Part shown: positions 3,147-48,798 of the stretch, piece by piece
Layout: every line of letters starts with the position of its first letter
Position numbering within the stretch: the first letter of the stretch is position 1
Origin: an uncultured virus (IMG/VR IMGVR_UViG_3300010885_062120)
Taxonomy: Duplodnaviria; Heunggongvirae; Uroviricota; Caudoviricetes
Strand: one strand, 5' to 3'
Virus record (IMG/VR): IMGVR_UViG_3300010885_062120
Length of the DNA: 64,000 nt
Notes under the pieces: model-generated
Told to the model about the DNA's origin: nothing
What the model saw: the letters and a program-made list of their open reading frames with translations, nothing else
Databases searched by the model: none
Translations under genes and position numbers: made by a program

Positions 3147-4124
3147 TTAACTTATCAAGGAGAGATAGCTTTTCAAAGCTTGCGCTTGTTCTGTTGATAA
3201 TTTATTTGGCATTTTAAAATTAACTTGAACTATATAGTCAGTTCTGTTGCTTTGATCAACAAAAAAGCCTTGGTGTCTAAATTGTATTTTTTGACCAGCC
3301 TTGCAAGCTTGAGGTATCTTAATTGTTACTTCTGCATTGTCTAGGCTTGTAACCTTCTTGTCAGCTCCTATCATAGCTTCAACAGGATCTATATCTAATT
3401 GTACATTACAATTGCCAGTTTCATCAATTTTGAAATAAGGATCATCCTGCAATTTGCACTGAATAACTAATGGACCTGGTTGTTGATCTGAATCTTCTTG
3501 GGATCCAGCACCCTGTAAAACGAATTGTCTATTTATGCTTCCAAGTGGGAAGGTAAGTTCTTTTTGAACTTGTACTTTTTTGATTCCAAACCCATGGCAA
3601 GATCCACAAATTACAGCATGCAAAAAACCTCTACCTCTACATCTGCCACAAGGGCCTAGATCTTGCTGCATATGGAAGAATCCATTATTGAATATTTGAA
3701 TATTTCTTCCTGCTCCATTACAATCAGGACATACGGAAGGGACTCCTGTGTCTGATCTTCCACCCTCTCCATTACAATCTGAGCAAAATGAATCTATAGA
3801 ATAGTGAATTATTTTAGTTGTTGGCTTCATTGTTTCCAAAGGATGTAATTCAACATGAACCACAACTGAAGAATTAGGTTGCTTATGCACACTCCTGTGT
3901 TGGGCAAACTGCGCAAAAGCAGAGCCTTGATTGTCATAAGCTAATTTTTTAGCTGGATCAGAAAGAGTTTCATAGGCTTCGCCAATTTGCTTAAATTTAT
4001 CTTCGGAGCCTTCTGCCTTATTTACATCAGGATGCCATTCTCTGGCAAGCTTGCGGTAGGCACTTTTTATTTCATCTTGTGATGAATTTTTATTTACACC
4101 TAAAATAGAATAATAATCTGACAT
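3147..4124 (-). CDS. dnaJ: DnaJ (class A-like) co-chaperone
   Basis: J domain DYYSILGV...AYRKLA..HPD; four CxxCxGxG repeats; DnaJ C-terminal domain; short G/F linker. ATG at 4124 preferred over TTG at 4139. Confidence 0.93.
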   Translation of the reverse strand: MSDYYSILGVNKNSSQDEIKSAYRKLAREWHPDVNKAEGSEDKFKQIGEAYETLSDPAKKLAYDNQGSAFAQFAQHRSVHKQPNSSVVVHVELHPLETMKPTTKIIHYSIDSFCSDCNGEGGRSDTGVPSVCPDCNGAGRNIQIFNNGFFHMQQDLGPCGRCRGRGFLHAVICGSCHGFGIKKVQVQKELTFPLGSINRQFVLQGAGSQEDSDQQPGPLVIQCKLQDDPYFKIDETGNCNVQLDIDPVEAMIGADKKVTSLDNAEVTIKIPQACKAGQKIQFRHQGFFVDQSNRTDYIVQVNFKMPNKLSTEQAQALKSYLSLIS

Positions 4125-4167
4125 AATTCGTGTTTCCAATAAAAATGATTAATCGAATTATATTATA

Positions 4168-5599: not shown

Positions 5600-6517
5600 T
5601 CAAGGCTGAGTGTAAGAGTTGCAAAATCTTGGAATACCAAAACCAAAGTTGCCTTCTTTGCCGATTGTATTAAATCTGCCATTTTGATCACAAATTATGT
5701 CAAGGGCCTCAAGCATAGCTTGTACAGATGTAATTTTAGGAGCATTAGGATTTTCTAATCTATCCTTCGCAAGAAGCAAAGCACAAATGCCAGCAACAAA
5801 TGGAGAGGCTTGGCTAGTGCCTTTTAATACTGCATACTGGTTATTTAGATATGTACTATAAATATTTACACCAGCTGCAACTACACTGACTTCTGGCCCT
5901 CTGGAAGAGAAATCTGCCAAATTTCCATTCTCGTCAATTGCACCGACGGCGATTACTTCAGGGTATCTAGCGGGCCAATTTACAGAGCTGCTGTCATTTC
6001 CTGCCGCTGCAACAATAATTATTCCATTATTTACGGCATCAATAACTGCTTGATGAAATGAAGCAGGTGGCTCAACTGGAGCACCTAGGCTCATATTAAT
6101 AACATCTACACCTTCATCTATGGCAGCTCTGATACCAGCTTCAATTCCAGCATATCCACCATGTCCACTATTGCCCAAGACCTTAACGGTCATCAATTCG
6201 ACTTCTGGAGCTATTCCCAAAATGCCAAAATCATTATCTCTGGCTCCAATTATGCCACAAACGTGAGTAGAGTGACCTTGGCTGTCAACAGGGCTATTCT
6301 CACCTGTGGTATCTAGCCCAAGCATATCAGGCAAATCGGTGTGAGTAGGCTTGCCTGTGTCTAAAACTGCTACTTTTATGCCAGATCCTTTTGTAACTTT
6401 ATGAAATTCTTGGATATTGGCCTTATTCAAACCCCAGTCAATAGTTTGCGACAATTGTGCAAACTGATACTCATATTCCATATCTTCAATAGGCAAAAAC
6501 TCAATAAGATCTTCCAT
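5600..6517 (-). CDS. Subtilisin-like serine peptidase (S8), no signal peptide
   Basis: VAVLDTG (Asp), GHSTHVCG (His), AAAGN, GTSQASP (Ser). Confidence 0.93.
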   Translation of the reverse strand: MEDLIEFLPIEDMEYEYQFAQLSQTIDWGLNKANIQEFHKVTKGSGIKVAVLDTGKPTHTDLPDMLGLDTTGENSPVDSQGHSTHVCGIIGARDNDFGILGIAPEVELMTVKVLGNSGHGGYAGIEAGIRAAIDEGVDVINMSLGAPVEPPASFHQAVIDAVNNGIIIVAAAGNDSSSVNWPARYPEVIAVGAIDENGNLADFSSRGPEVSVVAAGVNIYSTYLNNQYAVLKGTSQASPFVAGICALLLAKDRLENPNAPKITSVQAMLEALDIICDQNGRFNTIGKEGNFGFGIPRFCNSYTQP

Positions 6518-35734: not shown

Positions 35735-36277
35735 TTAATTTTTAGGAGCCAATATCATGATCATAGATTTGCCATCAAGAACAGGATGTTTTTCAACTGT
35801 TGAAATATCGGAAACAGATGCAACTAATCTATTTAAAATATTTTCAGCATATTCGGGGTAGGTGATTTCTCTGCCTTTGAATTTAATTAAAACTTTAACT
35901 TTATCACCGTGCTTTAAAAACTTAATTGCACTATTCAGTTTTACATTGAAATCGTGATCTTCAATCATAATGCCAAGCGTAAGAGTTTTCATGTCAACCT
36001 GCTTTGCTGCTGCCTGGTGTTCTCTTAGCTTTTTAGATAGTTGATATTTATATTTACCATAATCTAAAATTTTACAAACTGGTGGTGTGGCATGTGGTGC
36101 GATTTCAATCAAATCCAAATTCATGCTCTTGGCCATTTCCAAGGCCTTGACAGCCGCTACTATACCCTGCTGTTCGCCATCTTCACCCACTAACCTAACT
36201 TCTCTAGCTCTAGGCAAATCATTAAAAAATTTAAGGATTTGATCATTGACTCTTGGCAACAAATTATTTTCTGACAT
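35735..36277 (-). CDS. infC: Translation initiation factor IF-3
   Basis: RAREVRL, LDLIEIAP..PPVCKILDYGKY, HD...K, GDKVKV..FKGRE; ATG start with AAGGA. Confidence 0.95.
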   Translation of the reverse strand: MSENNLLPRVNDQILKFFNDLPRAREVRLVGEDGEQQGIVAAVKALEMAKSMNLDLIEIAPHATPPVCKILDYGKYKYQLSKKLREHQAAAKQVDMKTLTLGIMIEDHDFNVKLNSAIKFLKHGDKVKVLIKFKGREITYPEYAENILNRLVASVSDISTVEKHPVLDGKSMIMILAPKN

Positions 36278-40988: not shown

Positions 40989-43900
40989 TTAGCTATTCAA
41001 CATGTCTATATACATGTCTTCAATCATCCTTCTGTAAATTATTCTCATCTTCTGCTCATGGTCTAATTGCATCTGTTTAAATTCATACTTAAGTTCTCGT
41101 TCAATTCGTTGCCTTAATAAGAATTCGTCTATTTCCTGGCCACCAGCAACAGTTTGATTATTCTGAATCATTTGAATAATTCTCGTTGCATCAATGATAA
41201 TTTCTTCTTTATCTTTTCCGCTATCAACCAACGATCTTACAACTTGTGAAATAGGATCGTTTGGAGATTGCGTTGTTGAGGCTTGAGGATTGGTTGTAAG
41301 AACATCAATTAACTGTCTTTGGATCTGCTCTTCTGATCTTCTTAAGGCAGCTTTATTTTGCTCTCTTTCTTCAGATAATGCTTCTTGGAATCTTTCTCTT
41401 TCTTTTACCAGTTCCCTATAGAACATAGTTTCACTATCTGCACTTAATTCCGAAGCTTGATTTTCAGCGTTTTCTTTGATAATGATATTTTCTTCAAGTG
41501 CTTTATTTAATTGCTGCTGAATATCATGCTCTGCCTTTCTCAAAGCAATTTTATTCTGTTCTTGCTCAGAAATGGTTAATTCTTGGAACCTGACTCTTTC
41601 TCCAACTAGCCCTCTATAAATATTTGATTCTTGGTCATCGTCTAAATATTCTGGTACTACATTATCATAAGTTGATAAAAATTGAGGTTCAAAATTAGCT
41701 CCAACTGGCAAATATCTAAGATTTCTTCTTTTCCGCCTTCGCTTTTTGAGCTCTTCTTGATATTCATCATCTAATGTTTCTCTAATGCCAGTAATTCTAG
41801 GAGATTTGTAAATTACATTATCTTCATCACCAAATTGATATTCGTTTGATTGCAAAATATCATCTTCAAGGTCATCTAAATTTACATTCTGAAATTGATC
41901 TGCTTGCGGGCGTACTTGCTGATCTGTTATTGAGTACTCTGGAAGAGACTCAAATTTATTATTATTGCCTATAATTCTATCTAGTATTAGAGAAACTTTT
42001 TGCTTAGAACCATTAGATTCTTCGAATTGTTTTTGAACCTGTTCTTGTTCTTTTTGCTGTGATTTATCTTGCTTGTTTCTTGAAAATAATTTTGCAAAAC
42101 CTCTAACTTCATTTCTATTGTTTTGTATTGGCTGGCCACCAGTTAAAACAGTCCCAGAAATTAAATTATCTTGTTGATTTTGAGTAGATATATTCTTTCT
42201 AGATTGTATTTCTTGACGTGCAGTTATTACTCTAGTTTTAGAATTTTCATCAAGCCTTGTAAATTCTTCTGATGCTAAATATTCTTCTAAAAGCTCTTCG
42301 TTTGATATATTTCTAGAACCTTTATACTCATAAAAATCGCTTGGCAAATCAGTATCTAAATCAAAATTATTTATCTGATTATAATTTAATCCACCTCTAG
42401 TAGTACTAATTTCTCCTAATTGAATAAATTCTGATTGTGAATCTAATTGAGTTGTGCCAGTTTGATTTATTATATTTACAAAATCTTCTGGATCACTTGT
42501 GCCAGCTTCATAATTAGCTTGCTGAATAATTGTAGAACTTAAAATTCTATTTTGATTAGTAGCAGATAAGTTTTCATTTAGGTTGGCGTCATATGTTTTA
42601 GAATAATCTGATGGTGCCAAAACCCTTGTTTGATATGTATCTCCTGTGCCATCTGCAAATTTTGAATCACTCAAAAGATTACTATCATCTTCTAAAGATT
42701 GACTCTCTAAATTTTTAGAAGATAAAACTTCCTGTCCCGGTGTCTTTTCTACAGCTGCACCTGTGATTGTACCAGGAGTTGCGCCTGTGGTTGCGCCTGT
42801 GGTTGCACCTGTGGTTGTACCTGTGGTTGTACCTGTGGTTGTACCTGTAGTTGTACCAGGAGTTGTACCAGGAGTTGCACCTGTGGTTGTACCTGTGGTT
42901 GTACCTGTAGTTGTACCAGGAGTTGTACCAGGAGTTGTACCAGGAGTTGTACCTGTGGTTGTGCCTGTGGTTGTGCCTGTAGTTGTACCTGTAGTTGTAC
43001 CAGGAGTTGTACCAGGAGTTGTACCTGTAGTTGTACCAGGAGTTGTACCAGGAGTTGTACCTGTGGTTGTACCTGTGGTTGTACCAGGAGTTGTACCTGT
43101 GGTTGTACCTGTGGTTGTGCCTGTAGTTGTACCTGTAGTTGCACCAGGAGTTGTACCTGTGGTTGTACCTGTGGTTGTACCTGTGGTTGTGCTAGGAGTT
43201 TGTCTAGATATCTGTGCTTGTTCAGGTAACTGAGAATATATTTTATTTGTTTGTCCAGTAATTTGATCAGCTGTTTGGATAGTAGATTGATCTATTGGCT
43301 GTTTAACTGCTTGGCCAGTAGCAAGATTAATATTTTGACCATTAGTTTGATCTGTCGTCTTGCCTAACGACTGTGGTATTTTATCGGTTGTTTTATCTGG
43401 TGGCTGTGTATAACCTTGTCCAGTTATTAGTTCTTCATTTTGACCTGAAGTTTGACCTGAAGTTTGACCTGAAGTTTGACCTGAAGTTTGACCTGAAGTT
43501 TGACCTGAAGTTTGACCTGAAGTTTGACCAACTGTTTCATTGATATTAGATAATGACTGCAAATTATCTGAAACATAATTTGAGTTAGACAAATCTAATT
43601 CTGGAAGTTTTTGATAAGAAATACTCTGTTCTGTATTTGTTTCTAGAATTTTCCCGCCAGGTTCGAAAAAGGTAGAATCTGTAATTTTTTGATCTTCTGA
43701 AAATTTAATATTTTCATTTTCAGAAGATTTATTTTTCTGAACAATTTCATTAGAATCTGCATCCACAATCTTTTGATTAACTGTTCCGCTCTGTTCAAAA
43801 GATTCAAAAGGAGTATTATCAGTTGACAAATTACCAGTGACGTCTAAGTCCCGGCCTAGAATTGATTCTGGCAACTTTTGATATTCAATATTGGAGTCTC

Positions 43901-44903
43901 CAATTTGTCCATCTGTATTCGAAATGACTCTAGCATTATCTCCAGATAAAGGTATATTCCTGCTTAAGTTTTCTGCATATGGATCCAAAGGATTGTTTTG
44001 GGTTGCTGGCGAGTCACCAATGATAAGATCTATAGCTCGATCTAAGGGTAATTCATCTGGTTTAAAACCCTGGCTATTTATTTTGTCATCTTGTGAAAAA
44101 CCAGATAATGTAGAGCCCGGTAATTCACTTTTGGTAGTTAATGTATCTTGGCTAGAAGTTAATATATTATTTTTACTTGAGCCATCTAAATTACTTTCTA
44201 CAAAATTAGCATTTGAACTAAAAACCTGGCCAGATTCAGATAAAGACTGATTATTTGTTAAGCTCTTTGGTCCTTGGTCGTCATCGCCTATTTTTTGAAC
44301 TGAAAAAGCATTGGTATCTGAAATAACTGCTTTTTCAGAGTCTGAATTTTCTAATGTAACAGATTTTTGTCCATTTATTTGATCTGCTGTTAGAAATGAT
44401 CTTTGATTAGATGTTTTCTGATTTTCATTTTTTGGCAAATCAGAAATTATTTGATTTTGTAATTCAGTAGAATTTAATTTACCATCTTCATTTATTGTTT
44501 GGGACGATGATAGGGTGCTAGTTGATTCTATTGGCTCAGATATAGATTGAGGGAGTTTTTGAAAAGATGATTGAGCATCTGCAGCATCAAAATTAGATGG
44601 GGATGGTTTAACAACTGCCTTAAATGGAGTAAGTGTAGTACCACTGCTTGATAACTCTACACTATAAGTACCTTGTTTCAGCTTAACTAGTCCCAGGGGT
44701 AAAGATCCATCAAGGCCAATGGTACCAGAAAAAGTTTCGACTAATGTGCCATCTTTATAAAATTTAGCGGAAAACGATCCTCCAGATTGACTTAAATCTT
44801 CTCCCGTAAGAACTACGTTTGAGCCTTCTGTAAATTCAACATCTGGAGAACGTTGTAACTTCTGGACAATTTGTTCTTTATCAGAATTGTTCAGATTGTA
44901 ATC
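40989..44903 (-). CDS. Large acidic low-complexity protein with Thr-rich repeats and C-terminal coiled coil; 5' end probably reached by frameshift
   Basis: Frame stays open upstream of the TTG at 44438 for more than 150 codons (DYNLNNSDKEQIVQKLQRSPDVEF...ISD) with no ATG/GTG/TTG. Confidence 0.75.
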   Translation of the reverse strand, partial: DYNLNNSDKEQIVQKLQRSPDVEFTEGSNVVLTGEDLSQSGGSFSAKFYKDGTLVETFSGTIGLDGSLPLGLVKLKQGTYSVELSSSGTTLTPFKAVVKPSPSNFDAADAQSSFQKLPQSISEPIESTSTLSSSQTINEDGKLNSTELQNQIISDLPKNENQKTSNQRSFLTADQINGQKSVTLENSDSEKAVISDTNAFSVQKIGDDDQGPKSLTNNQSLSESGQVFSSNANFVESNLDGSSKNNILTSSQDTLTTKSELPGSTLSGFSQDDKINSQGFKPDELPLDRAIDLIIGDSPATQNNPLDPYAENLSRNIPLSGDNARVISNTDGQIGDSNIEYQKLPESILGRDLDVTGNLSTDNTPFESFEQSGTVNQKIVDADSNEIVQKNKSSENENIKFSEDQKITDSTFFEPGGKILETNTEQSISYQKLPELDLSNSNYVSDNLQSLSNINETVGQTSGQTSGQTSGQTSGQTSGQTSGQTSGQNEELITGQGYTQPPDKTTDKIPQSLGKTTDQTNGQNINLATGQAVKQPIDQSTIQTADQITGQTNKIYSQLPEQAQISRQTPSTTTGTTTGTTTGTTPGATTGTTTGTTTGTTTGTTPGTTTGTTTGTTPGTTPGTTTGTTPGTTPGTTTGTTTGTTTGTTTGTTPGTTPGTTPGTTTGTTTGTTTGATPGTTPGTTTGTTTGTTTGTTTGATTGATTGATPGTITGAAVEKTPGQEVLSSKNLESQSLEDDSNLLSDSKFADGTGDTYQTRVLAPSDYSKTYDANLNENLSATNQNRILSSTIIQQANYEAGTSDPEDFVNIINQTGTTQLDSQSEFIQLGEISTTRGGLNYNQINNFDLDTDLPSDFYEYKGSRNISNEELLEEYLASEEFTRLDENSKTRVITARQEIQSRKNISTQNQQDNLISGTVLTGGQPIQNNRNEVRGFAKLFSRNKQDKSQQKEQEQVQKQFEESNGSKQKVSLILDRIIGNNNKFESLPEYSITDQQVRPQADQFQNVNLDDLEDDILQSNEYQFGDEDNVIYKSPRITGIRETLDDEYQEELKKRRRKRRNLRYLPVGANFEPQFLSTYDNVVPEYLDDDQESNIYRGLVGERVRFQELTISEQEQNKIALRKAEHDIQQQLNKALEENIIIKENAENQASELSADSETMFYRELVKERERFQEALSEEREQNKAALRRSEEQIQRQLIDVLTTNPQASTTQSPNDPISQVVRSLVDSGKDKEEIIIDATRIIQMIQNNQTVAGGQEIDEFLLRQRIERELKYEFKQMQLDHEQKMRIIYRRMIEDMYIDMLNS
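42759..43190 (-). repeat. 12-bp tandem repeat x36 encoding TTTG/TTPG/ATTG
   Basis: Units such as acctgtggttgt and accaggagttgt counted directly. Confidence 0.95.
43441..43524 (-). repeat. Perfect 12-bp tandem repeat x7 encoding TSGQ
   Basis: tgacctgaagtt x7. Confidence 0.97.
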
Positions 44904-45547
44904 TTTTTTTTTACCCCATTTTGGGTTTTTCTCATTGAGTCAGGCACATAAAGCCTAGGCGCTTCTTTAATTCTGTCATAATTATAAGAAGCATTGTTTG
45001 TATTTTTTGAAGCTCTAGCTGCTAGTTTTTTACTCAAAGCAATTTCTTGAGGAATTTCTTTGCCCTGCTTTTGAAGTAAACTCATAATTGCTGGGTTTGC
45101 AGGTACAAAATCTTGTAAAATTTCTGATTCGTAATCATGATAAATTGTTTCACCAGAGTTTGACTTGCTGGCATAAATCTCATTAAATGTTGATAATTTT
45201 TCTTGAGGCTTAGGATAGACAACACCAGATTCTTGTTGTTCTTCTTCTTCTTTAAACAAAGGGAACTCTGGTCTTTCTTTACTTGTCAAAACTGGAGTAT
45301 TATCTTTATTAGTTGGAACATATCTTCTCGTGATACGCATTGGAGTTCTTGCCAATGGGGTGTCTGGCAATTCTAAACTCTGATCATCGACAGTATACAT
45401 ATTTACAGGCAATGGCCTTGCATGCATTGCGGAACCTGTAGCCACTGGCTCATAAGCATCAGTAAGCCCTGCCTCTAATTGAGAAGCATCTACATATTCT
45501 GATTCATCTGGTCTGATAATTGATGATAATGATATCTTTTTTGCCAT
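44891..45547 (-). CDS. Hypothetical 218-aa protein; zero-frame product of putative frameshift pair
   Basis: Ends GTA AAA AAA AAG ATT ACA ATC TGA. Confidence 0.75.
   Translation of the reverse strand: MAKKISLSSIIRPDESEYVDASQLEAGLTDAYEPVATGSAMHARPLPVNMYTVDDQSLELPDTPLARTPMRITRRYVPTNKDNTPVLTSKERPEFPLFKEEEEQQESGVVYPKPQEKLSTFNEIYASKSNSGETIYHDYESEILQDFVPANPAIMSLLQKQGKEIPQEIALSKKLAARASKNTNNASYNYDRIKEAPRLYVPDSMRKTQNGVKKKITI
44903..44912 (-). other. Candidate -1 frameshift / transcriptional slippage site (A9G; A_AAA_AAG)
   Basis: Heptamer in correct phase; the -1 frame is the long downstream ORF. Confidence 0.65.
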
Positions 45548-45562
45548 TTAGTTCACGTTAAA

Positions 45563-45599
45563 ATAATTTGAACCACTATTAGGTAGTGGTTCAAATTAT
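45563..45599 (-). promoter_or_regulatory. Perfect 16-bp inverted repeat (terminator-like) overlapped by TGTATAAT
   Basis: ataatttgaaccacta / tagtggttcaaattat, 5-nt loop; UUAUUUU at the 3' end on the minus strand. Confidence 0.65.
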
Positions 45600-45609
45600 A
45601 CAGTTAAAT

Positions 45610-47691
45610 CTAATTCTTTTTGAACCTAGACTTTGCAGCTGGTTTTTTAAATTTTCTCATGGTTTTCTTATGGAGCTTGGCATCTTCTTCTGTAGTTAAA
45701 TTGCCATGTTTCGGTTTTTCTTCAATAATATCACCCATTGGCCTTGGATCTTTAGATTGCATAAATAAATTGTTCCAATAATCTCTAAATCTCTTATCGC
45801 TTTCAACTTCTTTATCCATAAATTTACCTGCAAATCTTACATTGTTAACCAAATCTACAAATGCTCCTCTTAAGCTAAAAGATGGAGATATTGTTGGCTT
45901 AGTTGCTTCTATGCCAATTGACTGAGCCATTCCAGGATATATTTCTGTGAACACATGAGCTCTTTGTTGCTTAGCAAAGTTTTCCCATCTTCTTGCAGTT
46001 TTCATAGCTTGCTCTGCTCTAATTGGATTATTTGATCCTATGTTTTTAAACTCTTCAGCTATTTCTTCTAATATATCTGCCATTTTAAAGCCAGCAAGAA
46101 TAGCTTTTGGTGCCAAGACAGGTCTTACGGATACATTTGATTCCATTTCTATTTTAATGTTTTCATATAAATCTTGAGCTTCTGAATATTCATTCTGTCT
46201 AGATATAAGAACTTTGTTAAATTTCAAACCCAATTGCTTAGAACGCATATCTTTTTTGAATAAATCAAATTTTTCACCTAATGCTGTTTTTGCAAATTCT
46301 TTATCTTTTTCTTCTGGCTGACTTACCACTGTTCTATCTATTTCTTTATTCAAATCATTTTTTAAATTTGAAGCAAAACTTATAAGTTCTTCTATTAATC
46401 CAATGACTTTATCAGATTGATCAAGCGATTCATTTTCGTTTTGCAAATATTGAAATACATTAGCTGCATTAAAAGGACCAATTTGTGGAGATGTTGATTG
46501 CTTTGTTACAATATAATTTATCTCATTATCAACTTGTCTAGATAAATTTAAAATTGCACTTTCAAATACACTAATTTGAGTAACAAATTTACCATATAGC
46601 GATGCAAGTGCTCCAGATTGCGTAGGTGTGCTTGGTGGAGTTATAGGTGCAGCTGGAGCAGGTGGTGCTACTGAAAATGTATTGTTTGTTATTGTATTTA
46701 TATCAGATCTATAACCACCATATTGCGCAAAAACTTTTCTTCTTATTTTATCTGAAACATGGTTTGTCTTACCGGATTTGGGTTCAGATCCATCAGGCCC
46801 TTTATTTGATGTCATAGAAAATGAGTCAGTAAGAAGCGCATTGAAATCTCCTTTTTTAAAGTTTTTCAAATAAAATTCAATTTTATTTTCATTAATTCCA
46901 CTTCTCATTAATCCTACCAAATTGATATAGTTACCCGCCCTAATATCCATTAAAGTTTCAGTAACTTCGCTGAAAAACAAACTGTACTCTTCCAAAAATT
47001 GTGCTTTAATACTTAAATAATTTCTTAGATTTTGCTCCCTTACACTTACGGGAGATCTCAGAGTTTCGAGCTGCTCAGTTGCTTTAACGATGTCAGCTTG
47101 TTTATTCTCTGGTATTTTATTAAATAAAGCATATGATCTTATCATTTGGTACAATAAATATTGTTGAAATTCGTCTGCTGATTTACCACTATCCAGAAAA
47201 TCCATCGCCTTTGATATAATTTCATCAGATGTTGCGAGTAACTTTGATAAATCCGGTAATAATTTAAAAAAATTATCGAAAAATGACTCAAGCCCTGATG
47301 CACCTCTAAATCTGTCAACAGCTTTTCTAAACATAACAAGAAAGTTAGAGAAAGTAAAGTTTTTTTCTTGCATTTTAGGCCAAAGTTCAATTATCAAATT
47401 ATCGAATTGTAACTTTGTTATATTTTTTGTAAGAGCATCACTGACTTCACTGTCGTAATCTGATTCAGTACTGCCATTTGCTTTAAATATACTTTTTGAT
47501 GATCTTTCATTAGCTATAATATTGTCATATTTTTTTACAGCATTGTCTATGATAACATTTTTTTGCTCATCCGTCATATTGTTTATTTTTTTGCCGATTT
47601 GACCTTCAGGAGTTTGAGGTTCAAATATAGGCGTTGTAGCTCCCCCAAATAATTGAGCGGTTACTATTCTCTTATCTAAAAATCTTTTCAT
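45610..47691 (-). CDS. Large helical hypothetical protein (possible internal head protein)
   Basis: 693 aa; KRIVTAQ, RKVFAQ and VRFAG motifs delimit segments. Confidence 0.6.
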   Translation of the reverse strand: MKRFLDKRIVTAQLFGGATTPIFEPQTPEGQIGKKINNMTDEQKNVIIDNAVKKYDNIIANERSSKSIFKANGSTESDYDSEVSDALTKNITKLQFDNLIIELWPKMQEKNFTFSNFLVMFRKAVDRFRGASGLESFFDNFFKLLPDLSKLLATSDEIISKAMDFLDSGKSADEFQQYLLYQMIRSYALFNKIPENKQADIVKATEQLETLRSPVSVREQNLRNYLSIKAQFLEEYSLFFSEVTETLMDIRAGNYINLVGLMRSGINENKIEFYLKNFKKGDFNALLTDSFSMTSNKGPDGSEPKSGKTNHVSDKIRRKVFAQYGGYRSDINTITNNTFSVAPPAPAAPITPPSTPTQSGALASLYGKFVTQISVFESAILNLSRQVDNEINYIVTKQSTSPQIGPFNAANVFQYLQNENESLDQSDKVIGLIEELISFASNLKNDLNKEIDRTVVSQPEEKDKEFAKTALGEKFDLFKKDMRSKQLGLKFNKVLISRQNEYSEAQDLYENIKIEMESNVSVRPVLAPKAILAGFKMADILEEIAEEFKNIGSNNPIRAEQAMKTARRWENFAKQQRAHVFTEIYPGMAQSIGIEATKPTISPSFSLRGAFVDLVNNVRFAGKFMDKEVESDKRFRDYWNNLFMQSKDPRPMGDIIEEKPKHGNLTTEEDAKLHKKTMRKFKKPAAKSRFKKN

Positions 47692-47727
47692 AATTGTTTT
47701 CCCTGTTAAAATATATTTAAAAAAAAA

Positions 47728-48798
47728 CTAACCACCCATGCCCTTGAATAGGGCTCTAAAGAATCTACTTCTACCACCAGGCAACATATATTCTGGGGTA
47801 ACAATTGTTTTTGAAGTTGGGTATCTTGCGAGTGGTATTTTTTCTAAAAATTTATCAAAATCTTCTTTGTACATTCTTGCATCTTCTTTAAATTGATTAA
47901 AGATGTCATTATTTTCTGGATCAGCCATAAGAAGCTTAAATTCTCTATTTTTAAGCTGCACAGTTAAGCTTCTTAGCAAATAATATGTCGCGCCAGTTAT
48001 AAGTGCTGCATCGTAGTAAAATGGTGCCTGTGTTACTGATGTGTACTTTGATGTACCTGGCTGTGCATTGATTGCTTGCAAGGCCATATATAAAGCGTTG
48101 TTTAATTCACTATGAGTGAACATCTTAACCCAATAAGATGCATAAATTGTATCATAGGGCTCTATAGAAGCTCCTGTGCCAGTAGCATCTTTAAAAAATA
48201 ATCTGCCATTGTAATCTGCGGAGCACAAAAGACCTTGAGGGTAATTGTTCGTTGTTCCATTTACCGTTTTGTAAATTGGAGTAACATCATCTAAATGAAC
48301 ATAAGGATCTATATTGCCATCTGAAGAGAATCCAGAAATTCTAATCTCTGGTCTTGGATATGCGTTCCAATATTTATGAACAAATCTACAAGATGACCTA
48401 TTAAAATGCTCGAATATGCCTTCTTCACTTTCAACATGCACTTCCATCAAAGTTTTTATCTGATAAATCAAAGAAGCTTTAAGAAGAAGCTCTGAACCTG
48501 TAATTGCTTCACTTGTTGATAAAACTGAAGTATCTGTTGAAATTTCCCTTATTTTATAAAAGTGACTTGGATTACCTGCAGAATCAACATAATCACTTGC
48601 TGGGTATGGAATTGTAGCAATTGTGCTATACGGCCCATCCATAGAAGGGCCTCTTAAAATTTGGTAAAAGGCAACATTAGATGTTGCCCTTCTTTCCCAC
48701 GAAATGTAAACACCGGGATTGGCTGCAGTTGACATATAGTCGAGCCAAGAAGTATCTGGATACGCTAAAGCGGAAAAATCTTGATTATCTGCAGCCAA
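47728..48798 (-). CDS. Putative head completion/neck protein with N-terminal FN3-like domain
   Basis: ISW...YQILRG...YVD...YKI FN3-like start; helical ELNNAL..AL.AIN..P C-terminal part; TTG start with GAGGG. Confidence 0.5.
   Translation of the reverse strand: MAADNQDFSALAYPDTSWLDYMSTAANPGVYISWERRATSNVAFYQILRGPSMDGPYSTIATIPYPASDYVDSAGNPSHFYKIREISTDTSVLSTSEAITGSELLLKASLIYQIKTLMEVHVESEEGIFEHFNRSSCRFVHKYWNAYPRPEIRISGFSSDGNIDPYVHLDDVTPIYKTVNGTTNNYPQGLLCSADYNGRLFFKDATGTGASIEPYDTIYASYWVKMFTHSELNNALYMALQAINAQPGTSKYTSVTQAPFYYDAALITGATYYLLRSLTVQLKNREFKLLMADPENNDIFNQFKEDARMYKEDFDKFLEKIPLARYPTSKTIVTPEYMLPGGRSRFFRALFKGMGG

Follow-up and report, generated by a model that had tools for sequence, protein, structure and literature searches.

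The viral DNA analysed here (64,000 nucleotides (nt) from an uncultured virus, IMG/VR record IMGVR_UViG_3300010885_062120; hereafter the window) carries on its minus strand a short open reading frame (ORF), ORF1, with a run of nine adenines and a guanine (A9G) close to its 3' end. Beyond this run a very long frame that lacks a nearby start codon, ORF2, continues in the -1 frame. The elements that define this putative recoding site, which would fuse the two frames, are the following.

44891..45547, minus strand: ORF1, the zero-frame product of 218 amino acids (aa), with a family-wide N-terminal domain of ~190 aa rich in short conserved motifs
44903..44912, minus strand: candidate slip site A9G, with the zero-frame reading xxA AAA AAA AAG (A9 at 44912-44904, G at 44903)
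44891..44893, minus strand: zero-frame stop codon of ORF1, TGA, three codons past the slip site
44940..44942, minus strand: TGA that closes the -1 frame upstream
40989..44912, minus strand: -1-frame reading from the slip site, 1,307 codons including KKK, plus stop, corresponding to the extension of the long product

The 3' end of ORF1 reads GTA AAA AAA AAG ATT ACA ATC TGA, and its A9G run contains two tandem heptamers, A_AAA_AAA and A_AAA_AAG, both in zero-frame phase. The -1 frame is open for 1,316 codons, from the TGA at 44942-44940 to the stop at 40991-40989, and because of this upstream TGA any shift is confined to positions 44939-44894. Past the run, no ATG, GTG or TTG occurs in this frame until codon 158, a TTG at 44438, and no ATG until codon 1162. 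Joining the two frames is predicted to give a protein of 215 + 1304 = 1,519 aa (M1...V212-K-K-K-D-Y-N-L...), in which the trans-frame junction reads ...GVKKKDYNLNNSDK. Everything that the original prediction had stated about the sequence itself, namely the end of ORF1, the startless -1 frame, the upstream TGA and a fusion of about 1519 aa, was found to be correct when re-read from the letters. Decoding of the ORF1 TGA as an amino acid was considered and rejected, as the zero frame meets a TAG 27 codons past it (by-eye reading).

An A9 run taken alone is within chance, since two runs of nine A or T were observed in this 35% G+C window against ~6.5 expected under a first-order model, and the case is therefore built on comparison with relatives. 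The other run of nine is a T9 on the minus strand (47719-47727), which lies directly past the stop of the gene for a 356-aa protein and is thus intergenic.

Conservation of the A9G site among relatives

Database homologues of ORF1 number 41, with lengths of 119-225 aa, and the alignment comprises the query and 32 of them, the remaining nine (five near-duplicates of a 214-aa group and four fragments) being omitted. The three lysines K213-K215 are invariant in all 33 aligned proteins, down to 51% identity, and the proteins end 3-7 residues later. At the DNA level we had 22 metagenomic loci, 19 of which reach the 3' end of ORF1, while L008, L015 and L022 are cut short. The exact A9G, in identical phase, is present in 20 of 20 sequences (the 19 loci and the window), and in every one of them the zero-frame stop follows 9-24 nt past the run and an open +1 frame spans the ORF1 stop over 4-21 codons only. 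The frame break and the heptamer on which the original prediction was founded are thus kept throughout this set.

Counted from the slip site, the -1 frame extends over 1,011-1,307 codons in 12 of the 13 complete sequences and runs off the contig end in the other seven; in the relatives the complete frame has 1,011-1,147 codons, L012 excepted. It opens just 22-88 nt ahead of the ORF1 stop in these relatives, and in L018-L020 a -1-frame TAG stands 3 nt before the A run, which leaves the interior of the run as the only place where the switch is possible. Across the sequences the first ATG, GTG or TTG of the -1 frame is found at codon 27-194, with none within the 13 codons of L019; an ATG comes only at codon 109-1162, if at all. 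Although the flanks differ widely among 16 distinct contexts, the 13-mer AAAAAAAAAGATT does not vary. The length of the A9 run was judged on consensus contigs, and contigs of two further sequencing runs, X2 (9,667 nt, depth 27) and X5, also span it without an indel.

Nucleotide-level constraint at the run

The codons of the site were compared in 19 distinct ORF1 DNAs. Among 74 invariant amino-acid columns with degenerate codons, a single codon is kept in five, and four of these five are the AAA AAA AAG ATT of the site, while the other three invariant Lys columns of ORF1 mix AAA and AAG. The codon preceding the run is GTA (16 sequences), GCA (2) or CTA (1); the residue accordingly varies between Val, Ala and Leu, but the four-fold degenerate third base is always A (19/19). 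An invariant third base occurs in eight of 213 full columns, five of which are consecutive codons at the site. That the site codons are frozen while other Lys codons vary indicates that it is the RNA or DNA sequence that is under selection, with nine A's being maintained and not just six.

In our view the A9G at 44912-44903 (minus strand) is very probably a programmed frame-switch signal, yielding products of 218 and 1,519 aa. This was the central proposal of the original prediction (recoding at A9G that fuses ORF1 to a startless giant ORF and gives two products), and the comparative evidence strongly supports it. Both products would be made, the short form being the major one: most expression would end three codons past the run, giving the 218-aa protein, and a fraction would continue in the -1 frame to give 1,519 aa, consisting of the shared first 215 residues, a beta-sandwich, a fast-evolving low-complexity linker of ~1,000 residues and a C-terminal domain of ~150 residues. 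Weighing against this proposal, the 20 sequences are all homologous, which makes the conserved phase one observation and not twenty; moreover, in L012 (3768-5495) ORF2 stops at codon 575, compared with codon 1,092 in the near-identical L009-L011, an early stop that may be a strain variant or an assembly error.

Explanations without a frame switch

Three other explanations of the broken frame were considered, all of which we judge to have a very low probability. One is phase variation at the DNA level, in which a population would mix A9 genomes, making only the short form, with A10 genomes, making only the long one. Long homopolymers are prone to replication slippage and our inspection covered consensus contigs, but the A10 allele is found in 0 of 20 sequences, the contigs of the further runs show no indel, and no fused protein of the close clade was found in a search for longer proteins or among 1.84 billion representative proteins. 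The sole match in the longer-protein search, P0044 (461 aa), is chimera-like and also ends VKKKITI.

Less probable again is that the two frames are never fused, ORF2 being translated from the CTG at 44894-44892, which overlaps the ORF1 stop, or by termination-reinitiation, or from the internal TTG at 44438. The overlap, as CTGA, is seen in the window and 12 relatives, and gene callers do report ORF2 fragments of 571-590 aa from internal starts; the CTG had also been named as an alternative in the original prediction. However, it is present in just 13 of the 20 sequences, the other seven having ATA, TCA or TTA instead, and no ATG, GTG or TTG occurs earlier than the codon 27-194 given above. A start at TTG 44438 would skip a conserved, foldable domain that follows the slip site (see below), an independent start of any kind leaves the nucleotide-level conservation of A9G unexplained, and the in-frame relative P0046 joins both halves. 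The least credible of the three is an artefact or decay, that is, a homopolymer error in a single gene for 1,519 aa, or a recent inactivating frameshift. Homopolymers are indeed error-prone, and L012 has its premature ORF2 stop, but A9G occurs in 19 distinct sequences, with 56-98% protein identity, from several assemblies and sources, which excludes the homopolymer error that the original prediction had allowed for, and in a pseudogene neither the open frame of more than 1,000 codons nor the conservation of a domain and of the C-terminus would persist.

Domain organization of the predicted long product

The part of the long product encoded beyond the slip site contains the following features.

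44607..44840, minus strand: Ig-like (immunoglobulin-like) beta-sandwich domain, residues 25-102 after the slip, upstream of any -1-frame start codon
43439..43529, minus strand: tandem array, 12 nt x 7.6, 100% identical, encoding (TSGQ)n
42759..43190, minus strand: tandem array, 12 nt x 36, 87% match, TTGT-type repeats, in the window only
40992..41420, minus strand: conserved C-terminal domain of ~150 residues, ending ...MLNS

The domain that follows the slip site has ~80 residues, begins ~25 codons past the run and retains 47-48% identity in the most distant loci. Substitutions in this region, counted by -1-frame codon position, are most frequent at position 3 (4,101), followed by position 1 (2,857) and position 2 (1,989), and, as judged from its sequence, the startless -1 frame is protein-coding directly after the A9G site. 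The AlphaFold2 model of the domain shows seven strands with a block-mean predicted local distance difference test score (pLDDT) of 76-95, and its fold matches are Ig-like, IPT or FN3 domains (Foldseek E 7e-4 and 5e-5, VIA Z 7.7), among them accessory domains of phage baseplate, neck and adaptor proteins. For the modelled domain these matches point to a common fold only and to no specific family, and a PDB profile search with the domain gave nothing significant.

The middle of ORF2, ~1,000 residues long, is poorly conserved and of low complexity, rich in S, T, N, Q and G. The original prediction had described the extension as Thr-rich, which is accurate for the window, where Thr makes up 13.5% of it and the 12-nt x 36 array is found. 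The longest run of T/G/P/S/A/Q spans 145 aa in the window, against 0-61 aa in relatives, and the array at 42759-43190 is absent from all relatives, indicating a recent expansion. Both arrays lie within ORF2 in a 12-nt register. The variable middle is followed by the conserved C-terminal domain, and the last 57 aa of the long product are 67-68% identical in distant loci.

In-frame relatives and the history of the split

A profile search with ORF1 against the 1.84 billion representative proteins gave 19 matches, seven of which, 380-1,072 aa long, are each encoded by a single ORF and carry the ORF1-like domain N-terminally. Except for the 1,072-aa protein, these single-ORF relatives end ...INS, ...LNS or ...LNP, and the long frame of the window ends ...MLNS. 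The 621-aa single ORF P0046 aligns with ORF1 (E 2e-25, residues 6-172 against 7-162) and also, in order, with the post-slip domain (E 0.001) and with the ORF2 C-terminus through the last residue (E 4e-13); P0056 likewise aligns with the C-terminal domain of the long product (E 2e-5). From these alignments, the ORF1 and ORF2 halves are a single polypeptide in P0046, the nearest in-frame relative. Continuous single-ORF homologues had been regarded in the original prediction as evidence against recoding. This part of its reasoning has to be narrowed: close relatives are never continuous, and the in-frame proteins that do exist are distant and support the fusion.

In a tree of the N-terminal domain (20 rows, with P0060, P0058 and fragments omitted), P0046 is the sister of the split clade, with support 97/94. 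At least two changes between the split and the in-frame state fall on well-supported branches, and the best tree has four, the label "split" being given to the distant short proteins at the protein level only, from their length and their ...KK(K/N) ends. Of these distant short proteins, two have ...KKN at the end in place of ...KKK. The zero-frame tails of the short relatives P0047 (...KKKILNS) and P0053 (...KKNLNP) are similar to the ends ...LNS and ...LNP seen in the long in-frame relatives; the short form of the window ends ...KKKITI. This likeness may be a shared C-terminal motif or a coincidence.

Public gene calls for the ORF2 relatives P0063, P0066, P0067 and P0073, on contigs of 9 to 150 kilobases (kb), are the fragments of 571-590 aa mentioned above, which begin at internal codons and leave the N-terminal half of ORF2 unannotated in databases. 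Full-text searches of the literature, with most subscription journals outside their scope, found no paper on the ORF1/ORF2 gene family.

Polymerase slippage or ribosomal frameshifting

The frame could be switched during transcription or during translation. In the polymerase route, one A would be added on the nine-A template, changing GTA AAA AAA AAG ATT into GTA AAA AAA AAA GAT; in the ribosomal route, a -1 slip on A_AAA_AAA or A_AAA_AAG of a faithful transcript would lead to V-K-K-K-D. The protein is identical in both cases. The original prediction had named both routes, the ribosomal one first, and the data fit both while leaning slightly to slippage: we give polymerase slippage an even chance of being the main route and purely ribosomal frameshifting, of the E. 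coli dnaX or IS3 type, a chance below even, the rest falling to a comparable mix.

In vivo, bacterial RNA polymerase slips efficiently on runs of nine A or T, and Thermus dnaX makes use of this, according to the account in PMC5009743, which also gives 9-10 bp for the RNA-DNA hybrid of Thermus RNA polymerase. The length of our run, nine, corresponds to this hybrid, lies three bases beyond what the A_AAA_AAG heptamer needs, and is invariant in 20 of 20 sequences. A conserved downstream RNA structure was looked for with RNAalifold in 14 sequences, with 0 pairs predicted, and the downstream fold of the window has a z of -1.5, 17 of 200 shuffled sequences folding as well. The invariant extra A and the lack of conserved RNA structure slightly favour polymerase slippage. 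A mini-hairpin just 5' of the run (ACCC/GGGT) was also considered as a stimulator of slippage and rejected, given that it pairs in 75% of cells against 70% in shuffled ones, is equalled in 16 of 500 shuffles, and is not predicted by RNAalifold.

On the side of the ribosome, the heptamer is in the correct phase in all 20 sequences, the G that follows the run is invariant, and A_AAA_AAG is described in PMC4066793 as one of the -1 motifs of highest efficiency in E. coli and as avoided in genes, an efficiency that counts for this route. The G, however, is needed in any case for the Asp (GAT) that is invariant in the long product, and is therefore not specific evidence for the ribosome. The two tandem heptamers within A9G could account for the extra A's as well, which weakens the lean to polymerase slippage and has to be set against it. 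Against ribosomal frameshifting stand the missing stem-loop or pseudoknot downstream, the upstream GGGG, which is merely 2 nt from the run and missing in 4 of 19 sequences, and the ends of the two distant short relatives, ...KKN and not ...KKK at the protein level; in addition, RNA polymerase would be expected to slip on nine A's anyway (as described in PMC5009743).

Genomic context and possible role

Genes for IF3, DnaJ, an S8 protease, a helicase and an RNA ligase are present in the window, along with seven ORFs of 974-2,169 aa, most without a Pfam or PHROG match. The IF3 gene (35735-36277, minus strand) is complete, with both Pfam domains at E 1e-28 to 1e-30, and stands among the giant ORFs; the genes at 3147-4139 and 5600-6517 (both minus strand) are those of DnaJ and the S8 subtilase. 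Between the stop of a 693-aa ORF (45610) and the start of ORF1 (45547) a perfect inverted repeat was noticed by eye (45566-45596, minus strand). Its arms of 13 bp enclose a loop of 5 nt, TATTTT comes next, and the whole looks like a terminator or attenuator just ahead of ORF1; a TATAAT (45600-45595) overlaps the 5' arm. A scan for consensus promoters and terminators gave nothing above chance, and the repeat was not called as a terminator.

No real relative was found in 185,579 prokaryote species genomes (the sets of two scans), the only match, L023, being judged spurious (29 residues, antisense to an ordinary cellular gene). In blastn and tblastn searches of GenBank phages, the locus, ORF1 and the 356-aa neighbour were all without a match, and IMG/VR viral contigs gave no relative with the ORF1 alignment, the 356-aa alignment, P0057, P0046, P0052 or P0050 as queries. 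The relatives that we describe sit on metagenomic contigs of up to 446 kb, and the sequencing runs that share words with the window are labelled mostly as freshwater or lake metagenomes, with small shares; three of them are among the four runs whose contigs were compared with it. The 356-aa neighbour falls into protein-atlas clusters that are 82-100% viral, with Uroviricota as the commonest phylum. The source is presumably an uncultured giant tailed phage.

The neighbours of the site differ strongly in conservation. The 356-aa protein (47728-48798) is 73-100% identical across loci L001-L021, and the 693-aa protein (45610-47691) is hypervariable (28-68% across loci), with only its last ~60 residues kept. 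Relative to the window, L006 shows 100% identity in four upstream genes, 90% in ORF1 and 55% in the 693-aa gene, a contrast that suggests a recombination boundary or a hypervariable cassette. Within ORF2 the middle is variable between conserved ends, and further downstream lie a CHAP-like protein and giant ORFs.

These features fit a gene in a probable virion module with host-facing or ejected parts. Several results weigh against assigning such a role: the PHROG virion-protein matches of a 2,156-aa neighbour cover only an Ig-like part of it; the 220-aa CHAP-like neighbour scores below the Pfam cut-off; the protein-atlas leads of the 356-aa neighbour to head-completion or adaptor proteins score below 0.9; and ORF1 has no significant match in PDB profile searches. 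Such searches with the 356-, 273- and 1,554-aa proteins (for the last, its first 850 residues) gave nothing significant either. ORF1, ORF2 and the 693-, 356-, 273- and 1,554-aa neighbours have no Pfam or PHROGs match, the best protein-atlas score of ORF1 (0.75) is uninformative, and the AlphaFold2 model of the 356-aa neighbour is poor (mean pLDDT 50) and was not used for fold search.

Comparison with known recoding systems

The tau/gamma switch of Thermus thermophilus dnaX resembles the present site in having a homopolymer of exactly nine, in needing no RNA structure and in giving two proteins with a common N-terminus (as described in PMC5009743). In Thermus, however, the long product is the zero frame and slippage gives the short one, whereas here it is the reverse, in a phage gene of another family, with slippage as the putative route. 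With E. coli dnaX and the IS3 family the site shares the A_AAA_AAG heptamer, its phase and an overlapping -1 frame. The E. coli dnaX and IS3 sites have a downstream stem-loop, and dnaX an upstream Shine-Dalgarno-like element too, neither of which is conserved here. Their runs are only as long as the heptamer needs, whereas here three more A's are conserved.

C-terminal extensions added by frameshifting are known for virion proteins of several phages, including gene 10A/10B of T3 and T7, Lactobacillus phage A2 and Listeria A118/A500, according to PMC5009743. The likeness to the present case lies in the switch close to the 3' terminus of a structural-region gene, the beta-sandwich right after it, and the expectation of a short and a long form. 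Such extensions are reportedly often Ig-like (Fraser et al. 2006). They add ~50-150 aa to a major capsid or tail tube protein, however, whereas the 1,304 aa added here make an extension six times as long as the zero-frame product, which has another conserved domain at its far end; the carrier, ORF1, matches no known family.

The original prediction had pointed to the G/GT frameshift of the lambda tail assembly chaperone, which Xu, Hendrix and Duda are said to have described in 2004. Like our site, it shifts the frame by -1 where a small gene of the phage structural region ends (as outlined in PMC5009743). Unlike it, GT-type extensions have ~100-200 aa, compared with 1,304 aa here, and in-frame relatives exist here. 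The comparison is not supported and the likeness is one of analogy only, with an extension about ten times too long and in-frame relatives at odds with it. There is no tail-assembly-chaperone family match for ORF1 or ORF2 in PHROGs or Pfam, such families being so diverse that absence of a match does not exclude membership, and the next gene (1,554 aa) shows no tape-measure signature in Pfam, in PHROGs or in the PDB profile of its first 850 residues.

Retroviral Gag and Gag-Pol offer a parallel in logic, in that a short structural protein is made in abundance and a long fusion, made rarely, joins the same assembly through the N-terminal part they share; the proteins and the host are unrelated, and in our case co-assembly would follow by analogy only. 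Both forms would be brought into one assembly by their common N-terminal domain, a minority of the subunits carrying the extension. Such a co-assembly role, likened to 10A/10B of T7 and T3 and to Gag/Gag-Pol, is weakly suggested by these analogies. We further propose, tentatively and with more doubt than confidence, that the family switches between in-frame and A9-dependent split states (at least two changes on the tree), with A9 acting as a polymerase-slippage dial that sets a Gag/Gag-Pol-like ratio of the 218-aa anchor to a giant, fast-evolving, surface-exposed or ejected form of 1,519 aa.

Implications

What is found here is a known recoding trick in a new gene family of an uncharted phage lineage, with a trans-frame extension, 1,304 aa, that is unusually long. 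Automatic annotation misses the shape of this gene: databases show a 218-aa ORF and ORF2 fragments, and the two-domain protein of 1,519 aa is invisible. The family adds a deeply conserved recoding site, kept among ORF1 proteins to ~50% identity, and its in-frame members are a natural comparison for what the split form adds. The invariant A at a four-fold degenerate position makes the site a clean test case for polymerase slippage versus ribosomal frameshifting. A hypervariable protein beside very conserved neighbours is the pattern expected of a host-facing or host-injected component. Should the proposal of a slippage dial be true, homopolymer slippage would be a general expression device of giant phages, perhaps tied to the RNA polymerase of their late genes.

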